Shown here: positions 1,301 to 32,000 of the stretch, one piece after another
Numbering within the stretch: position 1 is the first letter of the stretch
Layout: each line of letters opens with the position of its first letter
DNA from: Nostoc punctiforme PCC 73102
GTDB lineage: Bacteria > Cyanobacteriota > Cyanobacteriia > Cyanobacteriales > Nostocaceae
Assembly (NCBI RefSeq): GCF_000020025.1
Contig: NC_010628.1
Location: forward strand, 2,520,001-2,552,000
Reading direction: 5' to 3'
DNA: 32,000 nucleotides
Program-made: the position numbers and the translations under genes
The notes under the pieces: model-generated
The model's database searches: none
What the model was told of the DNA's origin: nothing
What the model saw: the letters and a program-made list of their open reading frames with translations, nothing else

Positions 1301-2095
1301 TTATTTTATTGAAAACTGAGGTAATCTGAATGACTCATAGGTATCTTTTGGCTTCCAGTCTGTAATTTCTGATTGAATCAGATTGAACAGCTTACTGACT
1401 TGGTTCTTATTTCTAATATAAAAGTGTCCTTCTGGAAAGAAATGACTTCTGAACTCTTTAGTCGTATGCTGTTCCCAAGCATTAATATCTTGTTGACTAA
1501 CCATTGGATCAAATATTCCTCCAAGGGCATGAATTGGGCAAGGTAAAGCTTCAATTGGACGGGGTTGATAACTCTCGCACAGCAGGAAATCGTCTCGCAT
1601 TAGTGGCAATAAAACTTTCATCCAAGCCTCATCGTTTAACATCGATTCTGGGATGCCACCGAATCGATTTACGAATGATTTAAACTCTTCTACGTTCATA
1701 CTATTGCAAGAGTTATGAGGATAGTGAATATGAGGAGCGCGGTGAGCGCCGAGAAATAAAATGAAGGGTAGGTTTGTATCTTTTTTGCGACATTCATGAG
1801 CTAATTCATAAGCAATTAGCGCACCTAAACTGTGTCCATAAAAAGCATAGGGTTGGTGTAGATATTGTTTGAGTTGACTGTACAGTTCTGGAATTAGAGT
1901 ATTAAAATCGGTGATGCGAGGTTCACCAAAACGGTTCTCTCGTCCAGGTAACTGTACTGAGCATACTTCTACATTATGTTCTTGCAAGGACTCAGCCCAA
2001 CCTCTAAAACAAGAGGCTCCTCCCCCTGCAAAGTGAAAACAAAAAAGATGGGTTTTTGAATTCATGGAAACAGGCTCAGTTAACCAAAGAGTCAT
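1301..2095 (-). CDS. Type II (stand-alone, editing-type) thioesterase
   Basis: 264 aa. Motifs: LFCFHFAGGGASCFRGW, nucleophile elbow GHSLGALIAYE, C-terminal FFPEGHFY. These are hallmarks of discrete PKS/NRPS TEII enzymes. The start ATG overlaps the stop of the upstream hydrolase (ATGA, 2092-2095), implying translational coupling. Confidence 0.85.
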   Translation of the reverse strand: MTLWLTEPVSMNSKTHLFCFHFAGGGASCFRGWAESLQEHNVEVCSVQLPGRENRFGEPRITDFNTLIPELYSQLKQYLHQPYAFYGHSLGALIAYELAHECRKKDTNLPFILFLGAHRAPHIHYPHNSCNSMNVEEFKSFVNRFGGIPESMLNDEAWMKVLLPLMRDDFLLCESYQPRPIEALPCPIHALGGIFDPMVSQQDINAWEQHTTKEFRSHFFPEGHFYIRNKNQVSKLFNLIQSEITDWKPKDTYESFRLPQFSIK

Positions 2096-3192
2096 GCATT
2101 TTGCCCTCTCAATTTGAAGATTCGTTTTGTTTGCAGAACAAATAATACTGTTCGGAAAAGTTGTGCTTTTAAAGCTAAACTATGTCTGTTTTTCAGAAGA
2201 GAGAGGAGAATCCAAAATTTAACTTCTTTCATATGATTAGGTGAGCCATGTACATCATTAAACTGTTTCAAGTTCAGTTTGGAGGTATGGTGTTGTAAAA
2301 AGCTTTTCTCAGAAATGGGAATGATTTCGTCACGCAGACTGAAGATATAGTTTAATGGAATGGCTAAAGTCTTTAATTCGGTTGGGGTAAGTGCCATCGG
2401 CGAAATAGCGGCGAATAAGTATTTGATATCAATACCCATGAGATGTGCGAGAGTTCGTTTTGTGGTAATGGGAACCTGATTCCACCACTGTCGATCGCTA
2501 AAAAAGTGATGAATAGGTGCGCTAGCTGTTGTAATTGCTTGAATGCGTTTATCAGCGATCGCACTTTGAATCGCCATCTGTCCACTAAAGCTTAAAGCAA
2601 CTAAGTAGGTGTTATTCACCTCTGCTAGCTGGCTTAAGCCGTCTAGGAGGGCGGAAAACATCTTCCATGCGGTTGGGCTATACACAATCTCGTTCTCGCC
2701 TACTCCTGGCATTTCGACAAGAGCGATCGCCATTCCCAATGTATCAGCATTTTCAATAAAGGCAGCCCATTGTTCTTTGATGGAAACTATGCCACCACAA
2801 ACTACGAGTAAGGGGCGTTTTTTTTGCTCGGAACCACTGGTGAAATAGGTTTTGAATGTCCCCTGTGGTGTTTTAATTTCGAGTGTTTGTGTGTTTGGTT
2901 TGGTTAGTAACCATTGGTTAAATGAGTTGATACAAGCCTGGTGAGCTTCAATGTGGGCGGGTGATTGAATGAAGGGAAAACGAGCTAGATTATACAGTTG
3001 TGCTGCTTCTAACCATCTGGCTTTTTTGTATAGTGAATGTGCATCTTTTGACCATTCATAAACCCAAGAGCCTGGTTGATTTCCTTCTTCACTAGTAATT
3101 TTTTCTAGGATTGATTTGCTGTATTCAAATGAGATTCCTTGAGCTTGGGTGTGGAGTAAAACTAGTTCTTTGAGTTCATTTAGATATATCAT
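2092..3192 (-). CDS. Alpha/beta-fold hydrolase of uncertain subfamily; candidate off-loading or elimination enzyme
   Basis: 366 aa. Features: RPLLVVCGGIVSIKEQW strand, nucleophile-elbow-like VALSFSGQ, C-terminal DVHGSPNH candidate His. It lies directly downstream of the TE-less terminal PKS and is coupled to the TEII gene. The nested ORFs 2373-2585 (-) and 2609-2848 (+) are treated as spurious. Confidence 0.7.
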   Translation of the reverse strand: MIYLNELKELVLLHTQAQGISFEYSKSILEKITSEEGNQPGSWVYEWSKDAHSLYKKARWLEAAQLYNLARFPFIQSPAHIEAHQACINSFNQWLLTKPNTQTLEIKTPQGTFKTYFTSGSEQKKRPLLVVCGGIVSIKEQWAAFIENADTLGMAIALVEMPGVGENEIVYSPTAWKMFSALLDGLSQLAEVNNTYLVALSFSGQMAIQSAIADKRIQAITTASAPIHHFFSDRQWWNQVPITTKRTLAHLMGIDIKYLFAAISPMALTPTELKTLAIPLNYIFSLRDEIIPISEKSFLQHHTSKLNLKQFNDVHGSPNHMKEVKFWILLSLLKNRHSLALKAQLFRTVLFVLQTKRIFKLRGQNA

Positions 3193-3323: not shown

Positions 3324-6300
3324 TTAGGAGTTGACAGCTGAGATGCTACCGCGTTCGATGAGTTGTTTGATGAGTTCTTCGGCGATTTGAATTATGGTGG
3401 GGTTTTCCATGAATTTTTCTACTGATACGACAACTTGAATGTCGGTTTCAATACGGCTATTGATTTCCATGAGCATCATTGAATCGATGCTTAAATCAAT
3501 TAGAGTTTGTTTGGAGTCGATTGTTTTATTAGCATCAAATTTGGCGACTTTGGCAATTTGTTCAATAACATAGGTAGTTAATAGCTGCAATATTTCATTT
3601 TTGTTTGTGGCTTTCTGTAAGTTTTCTAAGATTTTTGATTGCTGTTCTGCTATTTCTGGTAAGTTTTGTTGATGTTGGTTAAGTAAAATTGACAGCAGTT
3701 CTGGCAAAAGTTTGATTTGTTCTGGTGTAAATGTTGCACTTTTCTGGAGATGTTGAGTTAATTCTTCAGTGTTTCCTTGATTAAGGAGGCGGAGAATTGG
3801 TGTCTCAATTATCTGAGAAGATTCTGAAATTTCCGGTTCTTCAGTAGTTTCAATCCAGTAGTGTTGACGTTGCCACGGGTAGGTGGGCAATATGACTTTA
3901 TGTCGTTTATGGTTGCATTCCAGGGCTGACCAATCTACTTTGACGCCGGATGTGTACAAATGCGCCAAACTGGTTAACAAAGTTTGCCGTTCTGAGTCTT
4001 TTAAGGACAAACTGGATAACCAAACTACATCTGCTTTGAGCGATCGCTGTTGCGCCTTTTCTTGTAATGTGGAGCCGGGGCTAATTTCCACAAATAACTC
4101 ATATTTCAAGCGCTGCAAGGTTTTAACGCTAGTCTCAAATTGCACTGGTTCGCCTAGTTGACTCAGCCAATATTCAGGAGTGGCAATTTGTCCATCGGCT
4201 ACTTTTCCCTTGCGATTGGCAATTAGCGAAATGCATGGTAATTGATAGTTGATTTGACGAGCAATTGTTTCAAAGTCTGCGAGTAATGACTCAACTAATG
4301 AAGAGTTGAAGGTTTGGGCAATACTTTCGGCTTGTGGTGCGAGGGGTTTGTAAACTGTTTCGACAGGTTGGGAAAAGGATAAGCTACGCGAACCTTTATC
4401 TGTAGAAATTGCTACTGGCTGCGGTATTTGTGTGGATTCGGTAAAAGCGATCGCACTATTTACAGGTAAAGCTTCCATGAATCGGGCATGAGCGATGGTT
4501 AATTTCAACCCGTCTTCTAAGCTAAATACTCCCGCTACACAAGCAGCAATATACTCGCCAATATTATCACCCAAGACGGCATCTGGTTGAATACCCCAAG
4601 AACGCCACAACTGATACAGGGCGTATTCTAAAGCAAATAAAGCGGGTTGAATATAAATGTATTCGTTCAGCAGGTAGGAGGATTTACCCCAAAGTAGTTC
4701 AAAGAGAGAAACATTTAATTGCTGGTGTAAAATCTCTTCGCACTGGTCAAGGGTAGCGCGGAATGTAGCTTCAGTTTCGTAGAGTTCCCGACCCATGCCT
4801 AAGTACTGTGAACCTTGTCCGCCAAACAAAAAGGCGATTTTAGCTTTGGCAGAACTGGTAGCTGATGGTTTGTGAGAAATACCAGCAACGTTAGTTTCAC
4901 CTGCTACCCAAGCAGCAAGGCGATCGCCAGCTTCACTCGCAGACGAGGCAACAACACCCAAGCGGTAAGGAAAATGAGAACGTCCAGTGTTAGCTGTGAA
5001 GCAAATATCAGCGAAAGACTGTTGCGGATGGGCATTGAAGTGCAGCTGGTAGCGTTCAGCCAATTCCTTAAGAGCTTCCGGCGTTTTCGCAGAAAGAGTC
5101 AGCAGGTGTGAAGACTTGCTCTCACTTCTCCCCTGCTCCTCTGCCCCTCTGCTCCCCTGCCCCTCTGCCTCTTCAACGGGTGCTTCTTCTAAAACAACGT
5201 GGGCATTGGTTCCTACTAAACTAAAAGCACTAACTCCAGCAATGCGAGATTTCTTTCCTCGCCGCCAAGGTGTGCGATCGACTGGGATTTTGATGGGCAA
5301 TTTGTCCCAAGCAATGCGGGGATTGGGTTTTTTAAAGTGAAGGTGAGGAGGGATTTCTTCATTTTGCAGCGCCAGTAAAACTTTCAGCAAGCCAGCAATT
5401 CCTGCTGCTCCTTCTTGGTGGCCAATGTTTGTTTTCACTGAACCGATAACTAGCGGATGGTCTTGAGAATGATTGTTGCCAAATACTTCACCTAAAGCTT
5501 CCACTTCAATGGGGTCGCCGAGGGATGTACCGGTTCCATGAGCTTCAATATAATCGATATCAGCGGCTTCTACATTACTGTTGGCGAGTGCTTGACGAAT
5601 CAGTTTTTTCTGAGCAACTCCGTTGGGTACAGTTAAGGCACTACTGCGTCCATCTTGGTTAACAGCAGAACCGCGAATTAAAGCCAGAATGTTATCGCCA
5701 TCGGCAATGGCATCTGATAAACGCTTCAGAGCGATCGCCCCACAACCTTCACCTCGCCCCATGCCATTTGCACCTGCATCAAAGGTTTTGCAACGACCAT
5801 CGGGCGCTAACATCCTCGCACGAGATTCAATTACACTCATATAAGGATGGAGAATCAAGTTAACTCCACCAGCCAGCGCGAGGTCACATTCTTTCAAGCG
5901 GAGACTTTGACAAGCTAAATGTACGGAGACAAGAGAAGAAGAACAGGCGGTTTCAATAGTCAAAGTTGGCCCCTGTAACCCCAAGAAATACGCTAATCTC
6001 CCAGCACCAGCACACAAACCTAAACCGGTGGCTGTATGAATATCTGCGCTAGTAGGTTCGCTACCTACGACCTGGGTATAATCTTGAGTCATCACCCCGA
6101 TGAATACACCAGTTTGACTATCTCGCAACTTGTCAGGAGATAAACCAGCACATTCCAAAGTTTCCCAAGCCACCTCTAGCAGTAGCCGCTGTTGCGGGTC
6201 TAACATGACCGCTTCACGAGCGGAAATGCCAAAAAATGAAGCGTCAAATTGGTCAACCTGCTCCAGAAAGCAGGCATTGCGACTATAAATTTTTCCTGGT

Positions 6301-6566
6301 GTATTTGGATCTGAGTCGTAGAATTTGTCAACATCCCAACGATCTTGGGGAATTTCTGCGATCGTATCTACTCCATCTTTTAACAATTGCCAAAAAGCTT
6401 CTAAATTATTGGCTTTGCCAGGAAATCGACAACCCGCTCCGATAATGGCGATCGCTTCGCTTTTTTCATTTTCCAGCGTATTGATTTTAGTTTGCAGTTT
6501 TTCTAACTTCAACAAAGCTTTAGCTAATAAAGCCCGATTATCTGTATTGTTTTGATTTGCGTTCAT
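3324..6566 (-). CDS. Type I PKS, terminal module KS-AT0-ACP (degenerate acyltransferase, no TE, no reductive domains)
   Basis: The start is taken at ATG 6564-6566 (MNANQNN...), with GGAGAA (complement of 6572-6577) 5 nt upstream. The track start at 6650 is a GTG lying inside repeat DNA. The KS (approx 5180-6455) is intact: TACSSS, EAHGTGT, KTNIGHQ. The AT-like region is approx 4120-4845. The ACP (approx 3375-3600) has LSIDSMM. There is no TE domain before the stop at 3324. Confidence 0.9.
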   Translation of the reverse strand: MNANQNNTDNRALLAKALLKLEKLQTKINTLENEKSEAIAIIGAGCRFPGKANNLEAFWQLLKDGVDTIAEIPQDRWDVDKFYDSDPNTPGKIYSRNACFLEQVDQFDASFFGISAREAVMLDPQQRLLLEVAWETLECAGLSPDKLRDSQTGVFIGVMTQDYTQVVGSEPTSADIHTATGLGLCAGAGRLAYFLGLQGPTLTIETACSSSLVSVHLACQSLRLKECDLALAGGVNLILHPYMSVIESRARMLAPDGRCKTFDAGANGMGRGEGCGAIALKRLSDAIADGDNILALIRGSAVNQDGRSSALTVPNGVAQKKLIRQALANSNVEAADIDYIEAHGTGTSLGDPIEVEALGEVFGNNHSQDHPLVIGSVKTNIGHQEGAAGIAGLLKVLLALQNEEIPPHLHFKKPNPRIAWDKLPIKIPVDRTPWRRGKKSRIAGVSAFSLVGTNAHVVLEEAPVEEAEGQGSRGAEEQGRSESKSSHLLTLSAKTPEALKELAERYQLHFNAHPQQSFADICFTANTGRSHFPYRLGVVASSASEAGDRLAAWVAGETNVAGISHKPSATSSAKAKIAFLFGGQGSQYLGMGRELYETEATFRATLDQCEEILHQQLNVSLFELLWGKSSYLLNEYIYIQPALFALEYALYQLWRSWGIQPDAVLGDNIGEYIAACVAGVFSLEDGLKLTIAHARFMEALPVNSAIAFTESTQIPQPVAISTDKGSRSLSFSQPVETVYKPLAPQAESIAQTFNSSLVESLLADFETIARQINYQLPCISLIANRKGKVADGQIATPEYWLSQLGEPVQFETSVKTLQRLKYELFVEISPGSTLQEKAQQRSLKADVVWLSSLSLKDSERQTLLTSLAHLYTSGVKVDWSALECNHKRHKVILPTYPWQRQHYWIETTEEPEISESSQIIETPILRLLNQGNTEELTQHLQKSATFTPEQIKLLPELLSILLNQHQQNLPEIAEQQSKILENLQKATNKNEILQLLTTYVIEQIAKVAKFDANKTIDSKQTLIDLSIDSMMLMEINSRIETDIQVVVSVEKFMENPTIIQIAEELIKQLIERGSISAVNS
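4120..4845 (-). other. Degenerate acyltransferase domain (AT0) of the terminal PKS module
   Basis: The N-terminal half is still AT-like (FLFGGQGSQYLGMGRELY). The active-site GHSVGE of the three sister ATs reads GDNIGE here, with the Asn codon at 4563-4565. The HAFHS motif reads QTFNSS (4305-4316). The carboxylate-binding Arg in L-I-A-x-R-x-x-x-M reads His (4488-4490). The small-subdomain segment (approx 4255-4480) has diverged beyond recognition. Confidence 0.8.
5129..5168 (-). repeat. Octamer microsatellite (TCCCCTGC and variants) x 5 in the KS-AT linker of the terminal module
   Basis: Units: TCCCCTGC TCCTCTGC CCCTCTGC TCCCCTGC CCCTCTGC. They encode EGQGSRGAEEQGR. Confidence 0.9.
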
Positions 6567-6660
6567 TATATTTCTCCAATTTGAATTGGGCATTGGGCAT
6601 GGAGGGAAGAAAGATAAGGTGGATTCATCGAGTTCAAAAACTCTGTACACTAAGTTTTTT

Positions 6661-6815
6661 GACCTACACCTTTATTGCATCGACCTGCACCTTTGTTGCA
6701 TTGACCTGCATCTTTGTTGCATTGACCTGCATCTTTGTTGCATTGACCTGCATCTTTGTTGCACTGACCTGCATCTTTGTTGCACTGACCTGCATCTTTG
6801 TTGCACTGACCTGCA
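6661..6815. repeat. 21-bp tandem repeat array, about 7.4 units (GACCTGCATCTTTGTTGCATT on the + strand)
   Basis: Units begin at 6661, 6682, 6703, 6724, 6745, 6766 and 6787, with a partial unit at 6808-6815. Units 3-4 are identical, as are units 5-7. The array lies in the spacer between the module-3 stop (6874) and the terminal-module start (6566). Confidence 0.95.
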
Positions 6816-6873: not shown

Positions 6874-9800
6874 CTAATCAAGGGCATCAAGTTTCAGAGT
6901 TAATAGTTCAGCAATTTGTGCTTCAGATAACTCTTCCAAACTTTCTGAAAATTCAAGAAGTAAATTCTCGTTATTTGACGCTGATTCAGTCGCAGCCGAT
7001 GGAGTTTCTGTCTCTAACACTTTTTCGGCAATATAATTAACCGCAGCTTCGATTGTTGGGTAATTAAACACAAAGGTGTCGGGAATTTGGCATCCTAAAC
7101 TTTTCTGCAAGCGCTGTTTTAATTCCACTGAAGTCAAGGAATCCATGCCTAAATCAAAGAACCCTTGCTGAGGATTAATTTGTGATGGGTCAAGAGCAAT
7201 AACTTTCGCAACTTGATTACACACATGAGTGGTTAACAATGCTCGTTGCTCGTTAATTGGTGCAGCTTTTAACTGCTGTAAGACATCAAATTCTTCCGCT
7301 TCTGGTTGCTCTAATTTTGGAGTGAAAGCCTCAAAGAACTTTTCATCAATGCCGAAGGATGATTGCTCAAAAAACTGATTCCAATTGATTGGTAGAACAC
7401 CTACCTGGTAAGCTGCTTGTCCTAGCAATTCTCCTAGTACTTGGAATCCCTTTTCGGAAGTAATACCACTAATTCCTTGCGCTACTATTTTACTTTGGCT
7501 GCGGTTTTCCAAACGGGCTGCCATTCCCACCTCTGCCCAAGGACCCCAATTGATGCTTAATCCTGGTAAACCATGAGCTTGGCGATCGCAAACCAAGGCA
7601 TCCATAAAGGCATTTGCTACTGCATAGCTTCCTTGTCCAGGAGTACCAATTAATGAGGCAATAGAAGAGTAACAAACGAAGAAATCTAAAGTCAAGTCCT
7701 GAGTTAGGCAATGCAGATTCCATGCACCTGCAACTTTTGGTTCGAGGACACGGTTAAACCGCTCCCATGAGAGTTGACGCAATGCGCCATCATCTACAAC
7801 CCCTGCGGAATGAATGACTCCTCGTAATGGGGGAAGAGATGAGCGAATAAACTCGAACACCCCAGTGGCGGCTGCTGCATCTGAGATATCTGCTGTCACC
7901 ACAAGCACCTGAGCGCCTGCATTTTCTAACTGAGTAATGGTGTCTTGGGCTGTTGCGGAAGGCTGGTTTCGTCCTACAAGAATTAAATGCTGCGCTCCTT
8001 GTTCAACCAGCCATTCAGCACTCTCAAGACCTAAAGCCCCTAATCCGCCAGTAATTAAGTAACTGCCGTCCTTTGCAACTTTGAAATCCTTGTTTTGCGA
8101 TCGCCCACGATAACGTTCTAATCTAGCAACATGGCGCACCCCTTGATGGTAGCTAATTTGATTTTCGCTGTCAGGGGAGGATAATTCACTCAATAAAATT
8201 TCCATGTCCGCTTCTGCATTGGCAGCTAAATCAACGCAGGTGCAAGATAATTCTGGATGTTCGTGGTTAATTACCCGCCCTAATCCCCAAAGTGCTGCTT
8301 GGGAAACTTGTAGAGGAACTGGATTTTTACTTACGGCTTGAGTTCCCCGTGTCACTATCCAGAACCGTGGAGCTTCTAATCCTGGTGTCTGTACAACTGC
8401 TTGCACCAAATGTAAAGCGCTGGCATAACTCACCGTTTGTGCCTCCCGGAGAGCATTCAATGATACATCTTCTGGGATGGCAGATGCTTCTAGGTAGACA
8501 ACGCCACGCAAAGGCGGTTGTTGACTGAGGCTGTCTTCAAGTAATTGCTGAAAGTCTTCTGGTTGGGTGGGATTAACTTGATAAGTTTCTTGATTTAATT
8601 GTTTATAGCTCGTGCCAACGGTAGCGATGATACAATGCTGAGAGCGATCGCGCAACTGTTGGGCTAATTGCAATCCTTGTTCGTAGTCATGGGCAAAAAG
8701 CAGCCAACTACCCGATTGTGGATGTGTAGGAAGAATTGAAAGTTGCTGGGGTTGCCAATGAACTTGGTACAGCCAGTTTCCAGTTTCCGCTTGAAAATTT
8801 CGCAGTACGGCTTGGCGATTGGCTTTTCTGCCTTCAAAACCTGTGACTTCTGCAATCAGTTGTCCAGTTTGGTCAAAAAGTTGCAAGTCGCCAATAACTC
8901 GATCTGCTTGAATGGTATCTAGTGATCGCAATTTAGCATGACACCATAACAATTCGCTTTCTGGGCGCTGATAAAACTGGAATTTCTCTAAGCTAAAGGG
9001 GATAAAAGTTTCTTCGCCCTCAATTGGCGTGATGGCAAAAAACAGTTGAAAGCAAGAATCAATCAGCGTCGGATGTAATTCATATTCGGCTGCATCCAAA
9101 ATAGTTGTCGGTACTTTCAGACAACCAAGCGCTTCTCGTTCTCCCAAATGAATCGAATTCAGCCAACGAAAACTAGTTCCTAAATCAATATTGCGTTCTC
9201 TGAGAGCTTCGTAAAGTTGAATACTTGCTAATTCCCGTGTGCAGCGCGATTCCACTTCAGAACGGGAGACTGTTGACGGTTTCCCGTAAGCAGTAGTAAC
9301 CTTCCCGGTGGCGTGGACAGCCCAATTATCGGCTTCCTCTTCTTCAAAGCTAATCAGTTTGAATGCAAAGTCTACGTTTTCTGCGGTCAGTGCTAATTGT
9401 ACAATCCGTTCTTTATCTTGGGCGATCGCCAGCGCTTGGGGAAAGACTACGTTTTCTAAGACACATCCGGAATTTTTAAACGTGCTTTTTGCTGCTGCCA
9501 ATAACAGTGACAGGTGACACGCTCCCGGTACAACCACTTCACTGTAAACTAAGTGGTCGCCTAAAAACGGTAGCAATTTGGTGCCAAAACGTGACTCAAA
9601 GAAAATATCTTTGGATAAAGGCGATCGCAACTGTTTATCTAACAGTGGGTGCAACTTGTGTAACGATGTAGCCTTGGCTCTGGATTTGACCCAGCAGCGT
9701 TGGCGTTGCCAGGGATAGGTAGGTAATATAACTTTGGCTCTGGTGTAGTCGCGGTCAAAACCTAACCAATCTACTGTCACGCCGTGGGCGTATAACTGCG

Positions 9801-12492
9801 CTAAGGTTGGCAATATACTATACCAATCAGATTGTCCCGGATGTAGACTGGGCAGCCATACCGCAGAATTTTCTGGCAGACATTGCCGCGCCATTCCCAA
9901 AAGAGTGGGTTTAGTGCTGAGTTCCAGAAATAACTCATAGCCGGACTGCTGGAGAGTTTGAACACTCTTCTCAAATTGCACAGCTTCCCGCACATGTTTC
10001 ACCCAGTATTCTGGGGTGGCAATTTCTCGCTGTGCGGCTTGTCCCGTCAGGTTGGCAATGAGCGGAATCCGGGGTTGGTGGTAGTCAATTTGACGGGCAA
10101 CTACCTCAAACTCTTTGAGCATTGGTTGCATCAAGCTTGAGTGGAAAGCGTGAGAAACATTCAAACGCTTGGTTCTCGCTCCCTGAGCTTCCAAAGTTTT
10201 GCAAACTGCTTCTAACGCCTCCACAGCACCAGAAATCGTAAAGCTGCGCGGGCCGTTGTAAGCAGCAATTACTACCTGTTGTGCGTAAGGAGATAATGCT
10301 TGTAACAATTGAGATTTATCTACCAACACCGCAGCCATCCCCCCGCCACTTGGCAAAGCCTGCATCAATTTGGCGCGGGTAGCAATCAACTTCAGCCCGT
10401 CTTCTAAACTAAACACCCCAGCCACGCAAGCCGCAATGTATTCACCAACGCTGTGTCCAAAGACAGCATTCGGTTGAATTCCCCAAGATTGCCACAATTG
10501 ATAAAGAGCGTATTCAATAGCAAAGATGGCAGGTTGAGTATAGGCGGTTTGGTCGATGAGATGGGAAGAACTACCCCAGAGCAGTTCCAGCAGGGGAATA
10601 TCTAAATAAGAACGTAAAATATCCGCGCATTTATCAAGGGCAGCTTTGAAAGTGGGTTGAGTGGCGTAGAGTTCTCTACCCACCCCTGCACACTGCGAAC
10701 CTTGTCCAGCAAACAAAAAAGCAATTTTGGGTTTAGCAGTAGGTTGTTGACCTTGCCAAATACCAGCAGCGCTGGTTTCGCCAGCCTTCCAAGCATTTAA
10801 GCGATCGCCTGCTTGCTCTCCAGAATCAGCAACAATGCTCAAGCGGTAGGCTAATTGCGATCGCCCAGTGTTAGCAGTAAAGCACGTATCAGTAAAAGAC
10901 TCTTCTGGATGAGCAGCTAGGTGAGACTCATAATTAGAAGCCAGTTGTTTCAGAGCCTCCGGAGTTTTAGCAGAAAGCGAAAGAATATGCAAAGGGCGAT
11001 CGCAAGAAGCAGAAGGGAAAGACTTACTCGAATTTCTCCCCTGCTCCCCTGCCCCTCTGCTCCCCTGCTCCCCTGCTCCCCTGCTCCCCTGCTCCCCTGC
11101 CTCTTCAACCGGCGCTTCTTCTAAAATCAAGTGAGCATTAGTCCCACTGGCTCCAAAAGCACTAACTCCCGCAATCCGCCGTCCTTTTTTCGCCTGCCAA
11201 GCAGTTTGTTTTGTAGGGACAGTAATTGCCAGTTCTTCCCAATTTATATGAGGATTTAGCTGTTTGAGGTGTAGGTGAGCAACAATTTGTTGATGTTGCA
11301 GTTGGAGGATAGTTTTAATGACCCCAGCAACACCCGCAGCTGATTCTAAATGACCAATGTTAGTTTTTACCGTACCAATTTTCAGTGGATCTTCAGGCGA
11401 TCGCTTTTTCCCCAAAACTCCTGCGATCGCTCTGACTTCAATAGGATCACCCAGAGAAGTACCTGTACCGTGAGCTTCAATATAACTAACTTCCGAAAAG
11501 TCTACTTTTGCATTCTTCAGGGCTTGGCGAATTACAGTTTGTTGTGCAGAACAGTTGGGAACAGTAAACCCGCTACTCGCTCCATCTTGATTGATTGCTG
11601 AACCCCGAATGACAGCCAAAATATTATTTTTATCTGCCTGAGCATCAGAAAGACGCTTCAAAACTATAATTCCACAACCCTCGCCGCGAGCAAAGCCATC
11701 AGCATCTGCATCAAAGGTTTTGCAGCGTCCCTCCGGAGAAAGCATCCGGGTTCGACAAAGAGCAACTGTGACTTCTGGAGAGAGAATTAAGTTAACGCCA
11801 CCTGCTAAAGCTTGGTTACACTCTCCATTTCGCAAACTTTGACAAGCTTGGTGAATCGCCACCAGAGAAGACGAGCAAGCGGTATCAATTGACATACTTG
11901 GCCCTTGAAAACCCAAGGTGTATGACAAGCGTCCGGCGGCAGCATTTAAAGTATTTCCGGTAATATAATAGCTATCAATTTGGTCGAGTGCTTGAGATTG
12001 CAACCTGGCGTAGTCGTTTGCGGTGACACCAATAAACACCCCAGTTTGAGAACCAGCTAACTTATCAGGGGCTTCGCCTGCTCTTTCCAAAGCTTCCCAG
12101 CAAACCTCTAAAAGTAAACGCTGTTGGGGATCAGTGCTAGCGGCTTCCCGTGGAGAAATTCCGAAAAACTGGGGTTCAAACTGGTCTATGTCAGATAAGA
12201 AACCTGCGGAACGAACATACATTTTTCCTGGAATATCTGGATCTGGATGATAGAGAGAGTCAATATCCCAGCGTTCTGGGGGAACTTCTCTAGTAGCATC
12301 TAACCCATCGCATAATAACTGCCACAGGGTTTCTGGATTATTAGCGCCGCCAGGGAAACGGCAACCCATGCCGATAACAGCGATCGCTTCATTTTTTGAG
12401 CGTTCCGTTGCCTCAATTTTTGCTAAGGCTTCATCGAGGGCAAAAAGTAATCGTTTCGAGGAAGAAAGTTGATTTTGATCTGCAATAGTCAT
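6874..12492 (-). CDS. Type I PKS module KS-AT-DH-KR-ACP (third extension module)
   Basis: The start is taken at ATG 12490-12492 (MTIADQNQ...). The track start at 12567 is a TTG that would translate the heptamer repeat. Approximate domains: KS 11112-12390 (TACSSS, HGTGT, NIGH); AT 9965-10725 (GHSVGE, HAFHS, so malonyl-type); DH 8800-9660 (HPLLD..GDHLVYSEVVVPGA, DSCFQ); KR 7540-8070 (GGLGALG, VDD variant of LDD suggesting B-type, catalytic Y in YAVANAF); ACP 7040-7260 (LGMDSL). There is no ER. Confidence 0.92.
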   Translation of the reverse strand: MTIADQNQLSSSKRLLFALDEALAKIEATERSKNEAIAVIGMGCRFPGGANNPETLWQLLCDGLDATREVPPERWDIDSLYHPDPDIPGKMYVRSAGFLSDIDQFEPQFFGISPREAASTDPQQRLLLEVCWEALERAGEAPDKLAGSQTGVFIGVTANDYARLQSQALDQIDSYYITGNTLNAAAGRLSYTLGFQGPSMSIDTACSSSLVAIHQACQSLRNGECNQALAGGVNLILSPEVTVALCRTRMLSPEGRCKTFDADADGFARGEGCGIIVLKRLSDAQADKNNILAVIRGSAINQDGASSGFTVPNCSAQQTVIRQALKNAKVDFSEVSYIEAHGTGTSLGDPIEVRAIAGVLGKKRSPEDPLKIGTVKTNIGHLESAAGVAGVIKTILQLQHQQIVAHLHLKQLNPHINWEELAITVPTKQTAWQAKKGRRIAGVSAFGASGTNAHLILEEAPVEEAGEQGSRGAGEQGSRGAGEQGRNSSKSFPSASCDRPLHILSLSAKTPEALKQLASNYESHLAAHPEESFTDTCFTANTGRSQLAYRLSIVADSGEQAGDRLNAWKAGETSAAGIWQGQQPTAKPKIAFLFAGQGSQCAGVGRELYATQPTFKAALDKCADILRSYLDIPLLELLWGSSSHLIDQTAYTQPAIFAIEYALYQLWQSWGIQPNAVFGHSVGEYIAACVAGVFSLEDGLKLIATRAKLMQALPSGGGMAAVLVDKSQLLQALSPYAQQVVIAAYNGPRSFTISGAVEALEAVCKTLEAQGARTKRLNVSHAFHSSLMQPMLKEFEVVARQIDYHQPRIPLIANLTGQAAQREIATPEYWVKHVREAVQFEKSVQTLQQSGYELFLELSTKPTLLGMARQCLPENSAVWLPSLHPGQSDWYSILPTLAQLYAHGVTVDWLGFDRDYTRAKVILPTYPWQRQRCWVKSRAKATSLHKLHPLLDKQLRSPLSKDIFFESRFGTKLLPFLGDHLVYSEVVVPGACHLSLLLAAAKSTFKNSGCVLENVVFPQALAIAQDKERIVQLALTAENVDFAFKLISFEEEEADNWAVHATGKVTTAYGKPSTVSRSEVESRCTRELASIQLYEALRERNIDLGTSFRWLNSIHLGEREALGCLKVPTTILDAAEYELHPTLIDSCFQLFFAITPIEGEETFIPFSLEKFQFYQRPESELLWCHAKLRSLDTIQADRVIGDLQLFDQTGQLIAEVTGFEGRKANRQAVLRNFQAETGNWLYQVHWQPQQLSILPTHPQSGSWLLFAHDYEQGLQLAQQLRDRSQHCIIATVGTSYKQLNQETYQVNPTQPEDFQQLLEDSLSQQPPLRGVVYLEASAIPEDVSLNALREAQTVSYASALHLVQAVVQTPGLEAPRFWIVTRGTQAVSKNPVPLQVSQAALWGLGRVINHEHPELSCTCVDLAANAEADMEILLSELSSPDSENQISYHQGVRHVARLERYRGRSQNKDFKVAKDGSYLITGGLGALGLESAEWLVEQGAQHLILVGRNQPSATAQDTITQLENAGAQVLVVTADISDAAAATGVFEFIRSSLPPLRGVIHSAGVVDDGALRQLSWERFNRVLEPKVAGAWNLHCLTQDLTLDFFVCYSSIASLIGTPGQGSYAVANAFMDALVCDRQAHGLPGLSINWGPWAEVGMAARLENRSQSKIVAQGISGITSEKGFQVLGELLGQAAYQVGVLPINWNQFFEQSSFGIDEKFFEAFTPKLEQPEAEEFDVLQQLKAAPINEQRALLTTHVCNQVAKVIALDPSQINPQQGFFDLGMDSLTSVELKQRLQKSLGCQIPDTFVFNYPTIEAAVNYIAEKVLETETPSAATESASNNENLLLEFSESLEELSEAQIAELLTLKLDALD
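11037..11100 (-). repeat. Octamer microsatellite (TCCCCTGC on the + strand, GCAGGGGA on the coding strand) x 8, translated in frame in the KS-AT linker
   Basis: Eight consecutive 8-nt units; the third is the variant CCCTCTGC. They encode [21 protein letters not shown], whose 8-aa period equals three octamers. Confidence 0.95.
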
Positions 12493-12498
12493 GGTTTT

Positions 12499-12530
12499 AA
12501 TTCGTAATTCGTAATTCGTAATTCGTAATT
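12499..12530. repeat. Heptamer STRR-type tandem repeat (AATTCGT) x 4.6
   Basis: Copies at 12499-12505, 12506-12512, 12513-12519 and 12520-12526, with a partial copy at 12527-12530. The repeat ends 6 nt upstream of the module-3 ATG (12492). Confidence 0.95.
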
Positions 12531-12557
12531 TAAAAAAGCCAGATTTAATCTGGATTT

Positions 12558-12679
12558 CTGATACCAATTTGAAAAAAGAGGCGTTGCCTAGATGCGGGAT
12601 GATCTTATTTACCTTTGCGTCTTTGCGTGATATTTTCTTTTATCCAGCAACGCCTTTTCAAAATCCCAAATGGTATCAG
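12558..12679. mobile_element. MITE-like inverted-repeat element (about 122 bp) overlapping the module-2 stop codon
   Basis: The left arm is CTGATACCAATTTGAAAAAAGAGGCGTTGC (12558-12587). The right arm is GCAACGCCTTTTCAAAATCCCAAATGGTATCAG (12647-12679). They are imperfect reverse complements. The core carries CCTTTGCGTCTTTGCGTG (12612-12629). The right arm includes the TGA stop (complement of 12676-12678). No transposase is present. Confidence 0.45.
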
Positions 12680-15600
12680 TTAGCGTCCTGCAAGAAACTT
12701 TCTAACCTTGCCAGCCTTTGACTAATTGAAGCTTCAATTTCATCTTCGCCAAGCTGTTCTATTTCAAAAAGTGTGTTGACTTGCTCGTGAGTGATAGGTA
12801 ATTCTAAAGTTTCTGTGACTGACGATTCCCAACCTAATACCTCTGTGCTGAGATACGCTACGAGGTCGTTGATTGTCGGGAATTCAAATGCCAGAGTTGA
12901 AGGCAAAGTACAATTCAGACTAGCTGCTAATCGGTTTCTCAGTTCCAAGGTGATGAGCGAGTCCATGCCCATATTGAAAAAGCCTTGTTGTGGATCTGGC
13001 AGATGCGCGGAACCAAGTCCCAATACTTGAGCAACTTCTGATTGCAGGTAAGCAACTAAAAGATCGTGGCGATCGCATTCTTGTGCTGTTTTGAGTTTCT
13101 CCAAAATCTCCGGTTGTTTTACAGTAGCTTCTTCAGGCTCATTCTCGGATGCAACTTCAATGTCTAAAAGTAATCGCCGTTGTTTGTTGGCTTCGTAAAC
13201 CGCTTTGAATTTACCCCAATCAACTTTAGCAACCACTGTTTGCGTAACGTTAGCTGCAAGTAAGAAACCTAAAGCATTAAATCCTGCTTCTGCGGGGAAT
13301 TCTTCAATACCAATCCGAGATAACCAGCGATCGTATTCGGCGTTAACCATGCCACCGGAACCAATTAGCGCCCAGTTGACGCTGAGAGCCGGCAATCCAA
13401 TCGAGCGGCGATAATGAGCAAAGGTATCTAAGAAGTGGTTGGCAGCGTCGTAATCTCCTTGACCTTTGGCTCCCCATACAGAACCAGCGGAGGAGAAGCA
13501 CACGAAGAAGTCTAATTTAATTTCTTGGGTGAGGCAATGCAGTACCCAAGTACCGACTGTCTTGGGATACAATACCGCTTCTAGAGTTTTGCTGTCTAAG
13601 TTCTGTAAAGCTTGATATCCTGGTGTCACCCCAGCAGCATGAATAATTCCTCGCAGAGGTGAATGAATAGTGTGAACCTGTTTCAATGCCAAGGACATTT
13701 GCACTAAATCGCAGACATCAACTACAAGGATTGTGACTTTAGCACCCTTTGCCTCTAGTGCTTGAATCGCTTTAACTTTTCGCCCTTCTTCAGTATTTTC
13801 GCTTAGGCTTGCCCACTGTTGGCGCGGGGGTAATCCTCTACGTCCGGCTAAAATTATCTCTTTTGCTCCCTGCTCAACCATCCACTGAGCAAGTTTCAGC
13901 CCTAAGAAACCCAAACCACCAGTAATTAAATAACTTCCATCGGCTTGGAATTTCAAGTTTTGCAAGTTTTCTGGATGCTGACTGCGAACCAAACGAGCAA
14001 CGTAACGCTGTTGTTGGCGGAAAACAATATGGTCTTCGCCATCAGATTCTAAAATTTCTGCTTGTAATATGCTTGCAGCTTTCTCGCTAGCTAAACCAGG
14101 TTCTAAATCAATCATTCCGCCCCAAGCTTCCGGATGTTCTAGTGAAATCACTTTACCCATACCCCAGAGTGGAGATTGAGCGATGCCGGGGAGTGGAAGC
14201 ACTTGATTAGCGATCGCCTGCGTCCCTTCAGTAACTAACCACAGGCGCGGAAGTTGAGAAGCTTCCGCCTGGAGTATTGCTTGGATTAGATGAAGAATAC
14301 TGCCACAGCCGTTGTGAGTAGCGGTTTTGATGCCTTCCACAGTCAGTACATCGGCATTCGGCGCATCCAAGCCCCAAAGATGCACAACTTTATTAATGGC
14401 AGATTGAGATGTTAGTAACCTTGAGAAATCTTCGAGGCGATCGGGTGCAACAACAAAACTTTGCTCTCCTAGATCCCGGTATTTTTCCCCTTGGAAAACT
14501 AATACACACTCTTGTCCTTGAGAGCGTAACTGATTGGCTAGCTGTTGACCGATACCTTGTTGGTCAGCTAAAATCAGCCAATTTTGGGAAGAATAAGCAG
14601 GAATTTTGGCTACTTGGGCAACCATAACTGCTTGTTCTGGCAGAACGCCGCTATTTTGCGTAATCGAAGGTAACGCTGTAGTTGTGGAAAAACCAACTTC
14701 TTTGAGTAACTTTTGCCATTGCACAGTTGTCAGCAAGGCGTAATCTGGGCGGAGGTCTACATCTTCAAAGCGCCACCAACCATCCAGCAATCCAAAAATC
14801 AGATCCAGCCAGCGTTGACGAGCAGTCACTTCCATTAATACGAGTATTCCACCAGGCGCAAGCAGTTGCCGTGCGTGTTGCATGGTAACACGTAAGTCTT
14901 TAGTGGCATGTAACACGTTAGACGCTACGATAATATCGTATTGTTCGGCTGGAAATCCTTGGGAAATGGGGTCTTTTTCAATATCTAGGGTTTGGTAGCG
15001 CAAGCAAGGATAATCTGGAAACTTTTGCTGTGCTTGACCCAGAAATACCGGAGAAACATCGGTAAATACATATTCAGTCTGTTCTTGTGATAACAGAGGT
15101 AATAAGTGTGCCGTTGTCCCGCCAGTTCCGGCACCGATTTCTAACACTCGCAGTCCGCGCCCAACGGGTAACTGTTGCAAAGCGGAACTGACCGCTTGGC
15201 GCACTAAAATATTCATCACCCGCGCACCTGGAGATTCTTGATAGAACTGAGTGGCGATCGTTGCATCTCCGTCGGGGAAAATCAGTTGTAGTGGGTCGCA
15301 TTTTCCTTGTAAAATCTCAGCTAGATTTGGCCCGCAGTTACCCAATAGAGTTAACTCTGCTTGGGCTGCGGGATATTGATGATGAAGATGTTCAATTTGT
15401 GCTTGTGGGTCGCCCTTTTGTGGCACTTGGGTGACTTCCCATTGAGTGCCTAAACGTTGTACAATTCCTACTTCTGCCAGCATTTCTACTAAACGCTGCC
15501 AAAGTCGGCGGTGTTGGGAAATAACACCTAACTGTTGAGCCAGAGATTCCGTAGAGAAACGCGAACCTATTTGGAAATTCCAGCCCAAATCCTGAAACGC

Positions 15601-18600: not shown

Positions 18601-18726
18601 ACAACCTAATCCAACGATCGCAATTGGTTCTGCTTTGAGTAATTCTAGTTTAGATTCTAATTGTTGAGCTGCGAAGGCTAGTTTGACGGGGGACATCTCG
18701 GAGATGCGTTTAGAAAAGCTGTTCAT
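12676..18726 (-). CDS. Type I PKS module KS-AT-cMT-KR-ACP (second extension module)
   Basis: 2016 aa. Approximate domains: KS 17345-18630 (TACSSS, HGTGT, NFGH); AT 16275-17040 (GHSVGE, HAFHS); C-methyltransferase 14620-15790 (SAM motif LEIGAGTGGTT at about 15115-15153); KR 13380-13945 (GGLGFLG, no LDD motif, Y in DYDAANHF); ACP 12860-13080 (MGMDSL). There is no DH. Confidence 0.92.
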   Translation of the reverse strand: MNSFSKRISEMSPVKLAFAAQQLESKLELLKAEPIAIVGLGCRFPGGVDSPEAYWELLRNGVDAITEVPKERWDVDAYYDPDPSKPGKINTRNGGFLAEVDGFDPHFFNISPREAISLDPQQRLLLEVTWEAMENANQTPQNLFNSPTGVFIGISADDYSQRLLDAEGREGIDAYFGTGKAFSAAAGRLSYFLGLTGPSFAVETACSSSLVSVHLACQSLRQRECNLALAGGVNLILSPEASLTFSKARMLADDGHCKTFDAAANGYARGEGCGIIVLKRLSDAITDQDRILAVIRGSAVNQDGPSGGLTVPNGPSQEAVIQRALATAGVEPAQVSYVEAHGTGTFLGDPIEVGALGAVFGKNHSPSNPLNIGSVKTNFGHLEAAAGIAGLIKVVLQLQHQEIAPHLHFQQPNPHINWEALPITVPTQSTPWIVPGDRRIAGVSAFSFSGTNAHVVLEESPTSGTSSVTNPEQPFNLLTLSAKTPEVMQKLASRYHLYFKAHPELSLADVCFSANTGRSHFPYRFSLVANSSSQLCDQLAALAAGETNVTGIWQGQQPATKSKIAFLFAGQGSQQAGMGQELYATQPTFKAALDECAEILRPYLDVPLLELLWGNSSHLLDQTAYTQPALFAVEYALYQLWQSWGIQPDAVLGHSVGEYIAACVAGVFSLADGLKLIASRAKLMQALPSGGAMAAVLVDKSKLVQALAPYAKQVAIAAHNGPRSFTISGAVEPLEAVCKALSANGGKIKRLSVSHAFHSTLMEPMLAEFEAVARQVKYQQPRIPVIANLTGQVAGGQIATPQYWVRHVREAVQFEMSIQTLHQDGYELFVELSAKPTLLSMARQCLPESTGVWLPSLRPGQSDWQSLLSSLGQLYVSGATVEWSSNRPSHKVALPTYPWERQRYWIETPQKQAQLARSQSTASTSIVRLIDQGNTQELLQQLATTSNYSPEQQELLLEMLTQLVKQHHQQVTAESIQDWLYELNWRSQARFGKELYPNYLPTPEQISSDLNPQIAELLPELNSYRQEVLSPLEAISIDYVVKAFQDLGWNFQIGSRFSTESLAQQLGVISQHRRLWQRLVEMLAEVGIVQRLGTQWEVTQVPQKGDPQAQIEHLHHQYPAAQAELTLLGNCGPNLAEILQGKCDPLQLIFPDGDATIATQFYQESPGARVMNILVRQAVSSALQQLPVGRGLRVLEIGAGTGGTTAHLLPLLSQEQTEYVFTDVSPVFLGQAQQKFPDYPCLRYQTLDIEKDPISQGFPAEQYDIIVASNVLHATKDLRVTMQHARQLLAPGGILVLMEVTARQRWLDLIFGLLDGWWRFEDVDLRPDYALLTTVQWQKLLKEVGFSTTTALPSITQNSGVLPEQAVMVAQVAKIPAYSSQNWLILADQQGIGQQLANQLRSQGQECVLVFQGEKYRDLGEQSFVVAPDRLEDFSRLLTSQSAINKVVHLWGLDAPNADVLTVEGIKTATHNGCGSILHLIQAILQAEASQLPRLWLVTEGTQAIANQVLPLPGIAQSPLWGMGKVISLEHPEAWGGMIDLEPGLASEKAASILQAEILESDGEDHIVFRQQQRYVARLVRSQHPENLQNLKFQADGSYLITGGLGFLGLKLAQWMVEQGAKEIILAGRRGLPPRQQWASLSENTEEGRKVKAIQALEAKGAKVTILVVDVCDLVQMSLALKQVHTIHSPLRGIIHAAGVTPGYQALQNLDSKTLEAVLYPKTVGTWVLHCLTQEIKLDFFVCFSSAGSVWGAKGQGDYDAANHFLDTFAHYRRSIGLPALSVNWALIGSGGMVNAEYDRWLSRIGIEEFPAEAGFNALGFLLAANVTQTVVAKVDWGKFKAVYEANKQRRLLLDIEVASENEPEEATVKQPEILEKLKTAQECDRHDLLVAYLQSEVAQVLGLGSAHLPDPQQGFFNMGMDSLITLELRNRLAASLNCTLPSTLAFEFPTINDLVAYLSTEVLGWESSVTETLELPITHEQVNTLFEIEQLGEDEIEASISQRLARLESFLQDAN

Positions 18727-30930: not shown

Positions 30931-31152
30931 TTACTGAATAGACTCGTAAATGTCTTTGATATTACGTGCTTGCAGCATAGATAAAACAGAGACTTTCTTA
31001 CCTGTGCGGATTTCAATCGAAGTAATCAAACGCAATAGACCAAGAGAATCCCAGCCTCCTAATTGATCAAAAGGAGTATTAATATCTTGTTCGGCAATCG
31101 GTAATTCTAGTACGTCTTGAATGAGATAAACCAAATCTGTAACGTTATTCAC
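30931..31152 (-). CDS. Discrete acyl carrier protein
   Basis: The start is taken at GTG 31150-31152, with AGGAG (complement of 31161-31165) 8 nt upstream. It overlaps the FkbH stop (GTGAATAA). The product is 73 aa with a phosphopantetheine site in LGGWDSLGLLRLI. The track start at 31206 is a TTG inside the FkbH gene. Confidence 0.75.
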   Translation of the reverse strand: MNNVTDLVYLIQDVLELPIAEQDINTPFDQLGGWDSLGLLRLITSIEIRTGKKVSVLSMLQARNIKDIYESIQ

Positions 31153-32000
31153 GAGTAAAACTCCTGTAGTCAGAAGATAAATTGATATGCTTAACAGAAA
31201 GAGCAATATTGTCTGTCAATGAGCGAAGATAAAGTACTCTCTGAGGAGTTTCTTCAACAAGTTCAAAGCCTTGCTTTTTATAAAAATCATGGACTTTCTG
31301 ATTTTTGGAAGATGGAATATACTCTGCGTAAACCTTTTCAATTTTTGCTTCTTTAGCCTGCTGTAAAATATGTTCTAGGCTAATTGTTTCAATCCCTCGT
31401 GAGAAAACCCGACAACTCAGTAGAAAATTATCTATGTAAAGTTCGCGTTCCTTGTCGATAGGTTGGCGAGTAAAGATACAGCCAACAATTCCATTGTCTC
31501 CAAACCGGTCTTGAGACTCAATTCCAATAATTGTGATAGATGAATCATCAAGAAGTTGATTAATTTCTCCCTCTTGATAGCGCTTAGTAGTCATATTGAA
31601 CTGATTGGTGCGTAAAGTGAGTTGAGAAATTCGCACAATATCTGCTTGTTGGGGTGCGAACAACTTCACTTTCAGTTCCAGTTCATTCAAGTAATCATCT
31701 ATGGAATCAAAATTTCCGAGAAATTCTTGGCGTTTAACCTCAGTTTTATATTTTTGAGTCCGGCTGTAATCTTCTTTGGTGATTTCAAGAGTATTGAACC
31801 AACCTCCTGTAAGCAAAGTTTTGGTGTAGCTTGCTGGGTCTTCTTCAAGTTCCAGCACCGTAACATTTGGCTGTTTGGAACGTACAAGATTGCGTTCAAA
31901 TTCACTATCATCAACAAAGACAAAACTATCTAAACCCAAGTTCAGCGATTGAGAAATTTCTTTCAGGTTTTCATGTTTTGGAGACCAGTTGGCGCAGATG
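31145..32000 (-). CDS. FkbH-like glyceryl-S-ACP synthase (HAD-IIIC phosphatase family), 5' end outside the window
   Basis: The reading frame stays open up to base 32000 (ICANWSPKHENLKEISQSLNLGLDSFVFVDDSEFER...), so the Met at 31939 is internal. Features: HAD-type FVDD motif, NQFNMTTKR, the conserved FkbH Cys motif FLLSCRVFSRGIE, and a GNAT-like C-terminal part. Confidence 0.85.
   Translation of the reverse strand, partial: ICANWSPKHENLKEISQSLNLGLDSFVFVDDSEFERNLVRSKQPNVTVLELEEDPASYTKTLLTGGWFNTLEITKEDYSRTQKYKTEVKRQEFLGNFDSIDDYLNELELKVKLFAPQQADIVRISQLTLRTNQFNMTTKRYQEGEINQLLDDSSITIIGIESQDRFGDNGIVGCIFTRQPIDKERELYIDNFLLSCRVFSRGIETISLEHILQQAKEAKIEKVYAEYIPSSKNQKVHDFYKKQGFELVEETPQRVLYLRSLTDNIALSVKHINLSSDYRSFTRE

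Follow-up and report, generated by a model that had tools for sequence, protein, structure and literature searches.

NvlM, encoded at positions 3324-6566 on the minus strand of a 32,000-nucleotide stretch of Nostoc punctiforme PCC 73102 (contig NC_010628.1, positions 2,520,001 to 2,552,000; hereafter the window), carries an acyltransferase (AT) domain that is a true AT by descent and by the fold of its large subdomain, and that fails every test we ran for an active AT. By its match to the description of Krumbholz et al. (2022, PMC9324945) we identify the gene as nvlM, which encodes the fourth extension module, and the final one, of the nostovalerolactone (nvl) polyketide synthase (PKS). We consider it probable that NvlM is the last elongating module of this PKS, that its AT (AT0) is a structural relic and that its acyl carrier protein (ACP) domain is malonylated in trans. 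The module and its parts, from the ketosynthase (KS) to the ACP, are as follows.

3324..6566, minus strand: nvlM, KS-AT0-ACP, 1080 amino acids (aa); open reading frame (ORF) with Pfam KS, KS-AT linker, Acyl_transf_1 and PP-binding matches, cluster identity from PMC9324945
5334..6458, minus strand: KS with Cys-His-His intact (Cys codon 5943-5945); PF00109 313.7 bits, PF02801 148.8 bits
4836..5333, minus strand: KS-AT linker with a degenerate octamer-repeat insert at 5128-5168; Pfam KAsynt_C_assoc and CurL-like_PKS_C
4467..4835, minus strand: N-terminal half of the AT0 large subdomain, GGQGSQ kept; alignments to paralogues, FabD and CurL 4MZ0
4317..4466, minus strand: remnant of the ferredoxin-like small subdomain, shortened, predicted to be disordered and evolving almost freely
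4011..4316, minus strand: C-terminal half of the AT0 large subdomain, opening with QTFNS (4302-4316); alignments, predicted with confidence (below)
3816..4010, minus strand: post-AT linker; alignment to CurL and paralogues
3366..3590, minus strand: ACP, phosphopantetheine Ser codon 3480-3482; PF00550 36.8 bits

Catalytic residues of the NvlM acyltransferase

AT0 was aligned with the ATs of the three upstream modules NvlJ, NvlK and NvlL, with the CurL KS-AT structure 4MZ0 and with Escherichia coli FabD, the FabD sequence serving as a guide only. The three upstream ATs all read GHSVGE, LIxxRxxxM and HAFHS, and HAFH is the signature of malonyl-type ATs by established motif rules. Where active ATs have GHSxG, NvlM has GDNIGE (aa 694-699, nucleotides 4554-4571, with GDNIG at 4557-4571), the nucleophilic Ser being replaced by Asn696 (codon AAT, 4563-4565) and the His of the motif by Asp695 (codon 4566-4568). 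The Arg of LIATRAKLM, the residue that binds the malonyl carboxylate, aligns with His721 (codon CAT, 4488-4490) within TIAHARFM (aa 718-725), and QTFNSS (aa 779-784, nucleotides 4299-4316) replaces HAFHS, with Asn782 (4305-4307) at the position of the catalytic His. These columns are nearly invariant among 103 homologous ATs, which hold the nucleophilic Ser in 99, the GHS His in 101, the Arg in 102 and the catalytic His in 100 cases (96-99%). An original prediction, made from the sequence alone, had named the replacements at GDNIGE and TIAHARFM with their codons, as well as the intact motifs upstream, and all were found as it gave them; it had also named QTFNSS, correctly as a motif, at 4305-4316, a span that takes in QTFN alone.

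Profile searches place the domain in the AT family and set it apart from active FabD-type enzymes. Against PF00698 (Acyl_transf_1) it scores 133.3 bits with a cut-off of 32.7, and it matches CurL KS-AT 4MZ0 at E=6e-98; the NCBIfam fabD model (TIGR00128) gives 115.4 bits with a cut-off of 260.9, and only model positions 2-123 of 290 are matched. The replacement of Ser, both His and Arg supports the view that the NvlM AT would be unable to act as a FabD-type malonyl transferase, and, together with the drift among orthologues described below, upholds the earlier claim that this AT cannot load itself.

Two candidate nucleophiles were considered and discarded. Fungal SAT domains carry an alternative nucleophile motif, GxCxG, and a SAT-like solution was rejected for N. 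punctiforme, which has no Cys or Ser at or beside the position. The Ser in GDSLG of the orthologue from Nostoc sp. ChiSLP01 was rejected as well, its partner His and Arg both being missing.

Age and reality of the loss

A scan of one genome per species, with the AT0-ACP half as query, yielded three orthologues in loci that share the nvlL-nvlM-nvlN...nvlQ neighbourhood.

Nostoc sp. C117: 91% identity over the AT0-ACP half; GDNVG at the nucleophile, QTFNS at the HAFHS position
Nostoc sp. ChiSLP01: 80% identity over the AT0-ACP half; GDSLG and QAFDS
Rhizonema sp. PD38: 65% identity over the AT0-ACP half; GDDMG and QAFSP

The frame is open across these genomes at identities down to ~65%, and Arg is replaced by His in all four sequences, N. 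punctiforme included. The former nucleophile varies as N/N/S/D and the former catalytic His as N/N/D/S, a drift indicating that both positions are no longer under catalytic constraint. Since three syntenic orthologues lack the catalytic set, the inactivation is older than the divergence of these lineages. That the losses stem from an error in sequencing or assembly, or from a mutation that lately made a pseudogene of nvlM in a single strain, we rejected, giving it practically no credence. Nothing was found in its favour, and several points speak against it: the nvlM DNA is identical across independent SRA assemblies, neither GHSxG nor HAFH, which resequencing might have brought back, was seen at these positions, all three orthologues listed above have an open frame and the same losses, and the cluster is expressed and its product made, according to PMC9324945.

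Further orthologues were sought in three ways. A word-indexed homologue search with the AT0-ACP half gave no orthologues, returning fragments below 900 aa at no more than 46% identity and full-coverage matches with intact GHSxG. In an exhaustive search of representatives the best 150 were giant multi-AT PKSs with scores summed over several ATs. A metagenome scan with the four-orthologue alignment, using the unspecific patterns AFLFGGQ and QYLGMG, gave no further orthologues, its best match reaching 42% over the AT.

Decay of the small subdomain and retention of the large subdomain

The small subdomain of AT0 fills 46 of the 63 NvlL small-subdomain columns, and pairwise alignment counts ~20 residues fewer. 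AlphaFold2 models of NvlM and NvlL were built from one shared 104-sequence alignment. NvlM aa 735-779 (local residues 221-265) are predicted with a local distance difference test score (pLDDT) below 50 and no secondary structure, whereas the NvlL small subdomain, our control, is predicted as a confident β-α-β fold with pLDDT 94-98. The linker and large subdomain of NvlM reach pLDDT >95 (>90 in the C-terminal half), the linker value referring to aa 515-605 of a model that excluded aa 440-514 and the repeat insert, and the top Foldseek match of the NvlM model is again CurL KS-AT 4MZ0.

The substitution pattern follows the same boundary. In pairwise comparison of the orthologues the ratio of nonsynonymous to synonymous substitution rates (dN/dS) is 0.33-0.76 in the small subdomain, which also carries indels, and 0.08-0.13 in the N-terminal half of the large subdomain. 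As a control the analysis was run on the active NvlL AT of the same four genomes, with dS partly saturated. Because of this saturation, we compared the amino-acid identity of the N. punctiforme-Rhizonema pair instead. Small-subdomain identity is 18/58 in NvlM and 44/70 in NvlL (p=4e-4). The remaining regions are alike, NvlM and NvlL being 89% and 90% identical in the KS, 82% and 85% in the N-terminal half of the AT, 67% and 73% in its C-terminal half and 68% and 71% in the post-AT linker; none of these differences is significant, so that only the small subdomain differs. A threefold difference in omega between NvlM and NvlL in the C-terminal half of the AT was discarded, the underlying dS values (0.9 versus 3.0) being partly saturated and dN nearly equal (0.20 versus 0.19).

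The earlier statement that the small subdomain is unrecognisable thus agrees with the unfilled columns and with the low-confidence, structureless prediction for this region. The companion proposal, that the AT remnant is kept as a structural scaffold, is supported by a frame still open at ~65% identity, by a large subdomain as conserved as that of NvlL and by its confident predicted fold. Both features, the catalytic replacements and the decay of the small subdomain, came out of the alignment of the four ATs with FabD and the fold modelling that the original prediction had proposed.

A large subdomain conserved as in the active NvlL AT would also be expected if the AT-like domain had taken on a new non-catalytic or non-canonical role, either as a docking site for NvlD, NvlE, NvlF or a trans-acting AT, or in binding malonyl-CoA or the ACP. 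GQGSQ, largely retained, and Asp695 and His721, invariant in the four orthologues, fit such a role. We nevertheless hold it to be unlikely: packing on the KS-AT and post-AT linkers predicts the same conservation, selection and shared descent are inseparable with four related sequences, residues at the positions once held by the nucleophile and the catalytic His change freely, and the partner proteins named are candidates only.

Proposed chain elongation by NvlM

KS and ACP had been called intact, and all the motifs on which this call rested are in place. The KS holds TACSSS (5934-5951), HGTGT (5526-5540) and NIGH (5418-5429), invariant in the orthologues, among which the domain is 89-100% identical with dN/dS of 0.01-0.07; it is 61-64% identical to the KS domains of NvlJ, NvlK and NvlL, the same as those KS domains among themselves. 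The ACP motif IDSMM lies at 3474-3488, its Ser1057 is invariant in the orthologues, and the dN/dS of the ACP is 0.06-0.14. One of the homologues examined here, P0083, is also a terminal KS-AT0-ACP module, and in it the His of the KS motif HGTGT has been lost as well (NGTGS). Having lost this His, P0083 is probably non-elongating, judging by its sequence. Its pattern is the one expected once elongation stops, and that NvlM does not show it supports NvlM being an elongating module.

The pathway asks for the same. In the published model there are four extensions, and the O3 linear intermediate needs the unreduced β-keto unit of NvlM; the FabH-like NvlD in turn needs a β-ketoacyl thioester for fusion with glyceryl-S-NvlF (PMC9324945). 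NvlM could instead be a non-elongating transfer module, in which the NvlL chain passes through the KS to the ACP and is presented to NvlD or the release enzymes, with neither extender nor AT required. A dead AT is expected where no extender is required, terminal KS0-AT0-ACP modules exist among the homologues (P0083), and the C8 length of the starter acid is only a hypothesis of the published model, so that a longer starter could offset one extension fewer (PMC9324945). This is an unlikely arrangement in our judgement: all four orthologues keep the KS Cys and both decarboxylation His under the strong constraint given above, where P0083 has lost its HGTGT His; the tetronate-type fusion by the FabH-like enzyme needs a β-ketoacyl thioester that only the unreduced NvlM extension would provide; and the published O3 count includes the NvlM keto group (PMC9324945). 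We infer that NvlM elongates.

Proposed loading of the NvlM ACP

With all catalytic residues missing from its own AT, the NvlM ACP would have to be malonylated in trans, and the building block of the module is probably supplied by another enzyme. Trans-loading is favoured by the intact and constrained KS and ACP, by the contrast with P0083 and by the extension that the published pathway requires. The original prediction had offered three sources, namely the AT of a neighbouring module, a discrete AT elsewhere in the genome, and the FkbH system. The first of these stands. For the second, no discrete AT was found in the flanks, of which ~8 kb upstream and ~10 kb downstream were the only DNA covered. 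As for the third, NvlE, the FkbH-like protein, adjoins its own dedicated ACP, NvlF, as in tetronate cassettes, and a KS with a Cys-His-His triad requires a carboxylated extender; for these two reasons the FkbH route is the least likely. With no discrete AT in the flanks and FkbH disfavoured, the neighbouring ATs or FabD are left, and the most plausible source of malonyl would be the AT of NvlL, or FabD. NvlL probably docks onto NvlM via terminal docking elements and would thereby present the nearest malonyl-type AT.

We thus propose the following course of events. The NvlM AT would be a catalytically dead pseudo-enzyme, whose α/β-hydrolase large subdomain and flanking linkers may have been retained to hold the KS-AT-ACP architecture, while the small subdomain, in active ATs the cap over the active site, has decayed. 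The ACP would be malonylated in trans, most plausibly by the docked NvlL AT, with another nvl AT or housekeeping FabD as further candidates. The intact KS would then perform an ordinary decarboxylative condensation, and the β-ketoacyl-S-ACP product would be passed to the FabH-like NvlD for fusion with glyceryl-S-NvlF.

That the NvlM ACP, or the KS acting on a free-standing ACP, uses a glycerate-derived non-malonyl unit from the FkbH system (NvlE with NvlF or with a 153-aa ACP-like protein) is suggested by the FkbH protein and two discrete carriers that the cluster contains, by the ACAD domain (of the FkbI family fold) in NvlI, and by the extra oxygen and unconventional C3/C7 labelling near the ring system described, and left unexplained, in PMC9324945. 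We judge this very improbable. NvlE beside NvlF, with a FabH-like enzyme, makes up the standard tetronate cassette, which already explains the glyceryl unit; the gene context examined showed no FkbK-type 3-hydroxyacyl dehydrogenase; and the KS, as said, calls for a carboxylated extender. To our knowledge, moreover, known hydroxy- and methoxymalonyl-ACP modules still have an active cis AT. A broader version, in which NvlM takes no malonate from any AT, the KS or ACP uses an FkbH-derived or other non-malonyl unit on NvlF or the 153-aa carrier, and the conserved large subdomain of AT0 serves as the docking site, seems very improbable to us; if true, it would make sense of the additional oxygen, of the odd C3/C7 labelling and of the formation of a δ-valerolactone/oxepane bicycle instead of a tetronate.

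Several points weigh against our preferred reading of NvlM as an elongating, trans-loaded module with a relic AT. Conservation of the large subdomain equals that in the active NvlL AT, Asp695 (for the GHS His) and His721 (for Arg) are invariant, and a retained non-catalytic binding function of AT0 is conceivable; the orthologue set on which these comparisons rest counts four sequences in total. We infer trans-malonylation and the identity of the loader from sequence. The acetate origin of the C2 unit assigned to NvlM is taken from the published model, which offers no explanation for the C3 and C7 labelling or for one additional oxygen in the same region of the product (PMC9324945).

The published account draws NvlM as an ordinary extension module, its main text making no mention of a dead AT (PMC9324945). 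Our results correct the nostovalerolactone model in that NvlM would not be self-loading, its last C2 unit probably coming from an enzyme outside the module; the unit belongs to that region of the product for which cyclisation, additional oxygen and labelling still await explanation. For engineers NvlM offers a natural test case, a cis-AT module that has apparently run on a dead AT since before the Nostoc and Rhizonema copies of the cluster diverged, and it indicates which AT parts may be architectural: NvlM retains the large subdomain with its linkers and can apparently dispense with the small one.

The nvl cluster and its repeats

Krumbholz et al. (2022, PMC9324945) divided the pks1 cluster of Nostoc punctiforme into a nostovalerolactone (nvl) and a nostoclide (ncl) subcluster, and the gene layout of the window agrees with their description of pks1/nvl. 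Every large ORF in the window lies on the minus strand; besides nvlM they are the following, listed together with the AT domain of NvlL.

6874-12567, minus strand: NvlL, KS-AT-DH-KR-ACP (Pfam)
9838..10722, minus strand: AT of NvlL, with GHSVGE, Arg and HAFHS, malonyl-type (Pfam 213.9 bits, motifs)
12676-18726, minus strand: NvlK, KS-AT-cMT-KR-ACP (Pfam)
18829-24399, minus strand: NvlJ, KS-AT-DH-KR-ACP (Pfam)
24777-28631, minus strand: NvlI, loading protein FAAL-ACAD-ACP (Pfam)
28836-30056, minus strand: FAD monooxygenase (Pfam)
30150-31016, minus strand: NvlG, 2-oxoacid-dehydrogenase-type acyltransferase, Agg4-like (PF00198)
30931..31152, minus strand: nvlF, discrete ACP for the glyceryl unit, a 73-aa PP-binding gene (ORF with GGWDSLG motif)
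31145..32000, minus strand: C-terminal part of nvlE, a 638-aa FkbH-like glyceryl-S-ACP synthase running off the window end (TIGR01686 FkbH 323.9 bits)
2092..3192, minus strand: nvlN, Agg5-like α/β hydrolase downstream of nvlM (Pfam FrsA-like; role from PMC9324945)
1301..2095, minus strand: nvlO, type II thioesterase (Pfam Thioesterase 152 bits)
after the type II thioesterase in gene order, minus strand: SRPBCC cyclase-like protein (Pfam)

The start of nvlM is the ATG at 6564-6566 (MNANQ...), used by all orthologues and gene callers, and independent assemblies call it as a 1080-aa gene; the mechanical ORF runs from a GTG at 6650 (3324-6650), its extra 28 codons (6567-6650) not being conserved in the orthologues. 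An apparent stand-alone 'GNAT' ORF at 31145-31939 (weak Pfam Acetyltransf_1) is the C-terminal region of NvlE, whose TIGR01686 FkbH domain covers residues 271-601 of the full protein. Independent assemblies place an AraC regulator, the 153-aa ACP-like protein, an Sfp-type phosphopantetheinyl transferase, the FabH-like NvlD and NvlE upstream, and a Baeyer-Villiger-type monooxygenase followed by an ACP, KS, KAS III and PAL set downstream. Scores of the FabH-like protein against fabH-family models stay under the curated cut-offs. FkbH-like, discrete ACP, FabH-like, Agg4-like and Agg5-like proteins thus surround a modular PKS that ends unreduced, as in a tetronate-type cassette. Between the AraC regulator and NvlD stand the 153-aa ACP-like protein and the Sfp-type transferase (L020 2164-3458, upstream of the window); the available part of PMC9324945 does not take up what this second free-standing carrier does. 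The type II thioesterase NvlO is present in both Nostoc orthologous loci; in that of Rhizonema sp. PD38 (L009 9057-11109) the interval from the NvlN to the NvlP homologue contains no ORF for it of 150 aa or more.

Three kinds of repeat occur in and around the nvl genes. Tandem arrays of a 21-nucleotide unit, with 7.5 and 8 copies, fill parts of the nvlL-nvlM spacer (6659-6815) and the nvlI-nvlJ spacer (24540-24706); their units are ~70% alike once one is reverse-complemented, so that they belong to the same repeat family in opposite orientations. Nostoc sp. C117 and ChiSLP01 have shorter nvlL-nvlM spacers, in which the arrays are missing and a GC-rich inverted repeat takes their place. Within coding sequence, at a corresponding place of each KS-AT linker, the octamer CTCCCCTG (CAGGGGAG on the coding strand) recurs in tandem at 11036-11100, 22949-22984 and 5128-5168, with 8 copies in NvlL, 4.5 in NvlJ and a degenerate array in NvlM. 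It is translated as (GEQGSRGA)n directly after EEAPVEEA, its copy number varying among the paralogues, and NvlM of ChiSLP01 has a different, Gly/Arg/Asp-rich low-complexity insertion of 31 aa at this spot. Finally, heptamers of the cyanobacterial short tandemly repeated repetitive (STRR) type, TAATTCG x4.7 and TTACGAA x3.7, lie at 12498-12530 and 24715-24740, just upstream of nvlL and nvlJ; the mechanical ORF reads through the first of these arrays as 'ITNYELRIKT'.

Comparison with known systems

Degenerate ATs are also met among the homologues of NvlM. In five of the 120 homologues listed (P0083, P0033, P0090, P0021 and P0039) GHSxG is not intact; in a sixth, P0002, GHSVG is present and the small subdomain is gone. 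The five are of the cis-AT type and come mostly from cyanobacterial metagenome-assembled genomes or metagenome contigs, and three of them have the small subdomain deleted. Those characterised further are given below.

P0083 (L026 197-2356): terminal KS0-AT0-ACP with GYGLG and KS NGTGS, followed by a TubC_N-domain protein
P0033 (L025 1-2300): GQDIG, small subdomain deleted
P0090: GDDVG, small subdomain deleted
P0002: GHSVG kept, small subdomain lost, unusual ACP motif MDYS

P0083 and the other degenerate ATs are non-orthologous to NvlM (at most ~40% identity) and stand in different gene contexts, and by their sequences decay of the AT has happened repeatedly within this group of cis-AT-type PKSs. 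With several degenerate ATs among the homologues, Pfam-based callers of 'AT' domains would over-predict extender loading.

The nearest likeness to NvlM is module 12 (IruF) of the irumamycin PKS, a terminal cis-AT module whose AT12 is judged to be inactive and purely structural. Elongation with malonate is nonetheless ascribed to this module, and its ACP is proposed, on the basis of bioinformatics and modelling, to be loaded by AT11 (PMC11672594). That PKS differs from ours in being an actinomycete (Streptomyces) macrolide synthase with DH and TE domains in the module and with AT11 and AT12 on one polypeptide. NvlM, unlike it, would have its donor AT on a separate, docked protein, and combines a decayed small subdomain with tetronate-type FabH/FkbH release. 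AT-null modules of DEBS work when malonyl is supplied by another AT in trans (reviewed in PMC6164871), and this makes the mechanism proposed for NvlM chemically and structurally feasible. The DEBS modules were made in the laboratory by point mutation, their AT fold being intact in other respects, and are rescued by added trans-ATs; NvlM, which would work as a naturally AT-null cis-AT module, is in contrast a natural and evolutionarily old inactivation, and has no dedicated trans-AT gene nearby.

With trans-AT PKSs NvlM shares an ACP that is (here, as proposed) loaded by an AT outside the module, and the vestigial AT-side linkers. The nvl PKS is not a trans-AT PKS, with complete cis ATs in its three other modules NvlJ, NvlK and NvlL and no discrete AT in the ~8 kb and ~10 kb of flanks; NvlM moreover keeps a full large subdomain and not a docking stub, and its closest solved relative is the cis-AT CurL KS-AT. 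The RK-682 and agglomerin tetronate pathways, on whose type the published nvl model draws (PMC9324945), resemble nvl in having an unreduced terminal KS-AT-ACP module together with a FabH-like protein, FkbH, a discrete ACP and an Agg4/Agg5 pair. The nvl product, a δ-valerolactone/oxepane bicycle according to PMC9324945, is unlike the tetronates, and our literature search found no tetronate-pathway precedent for an inactive AT. The dead AT is thus new for the nvl pathway, whereas inactive ATs as a phenomenon were already known.

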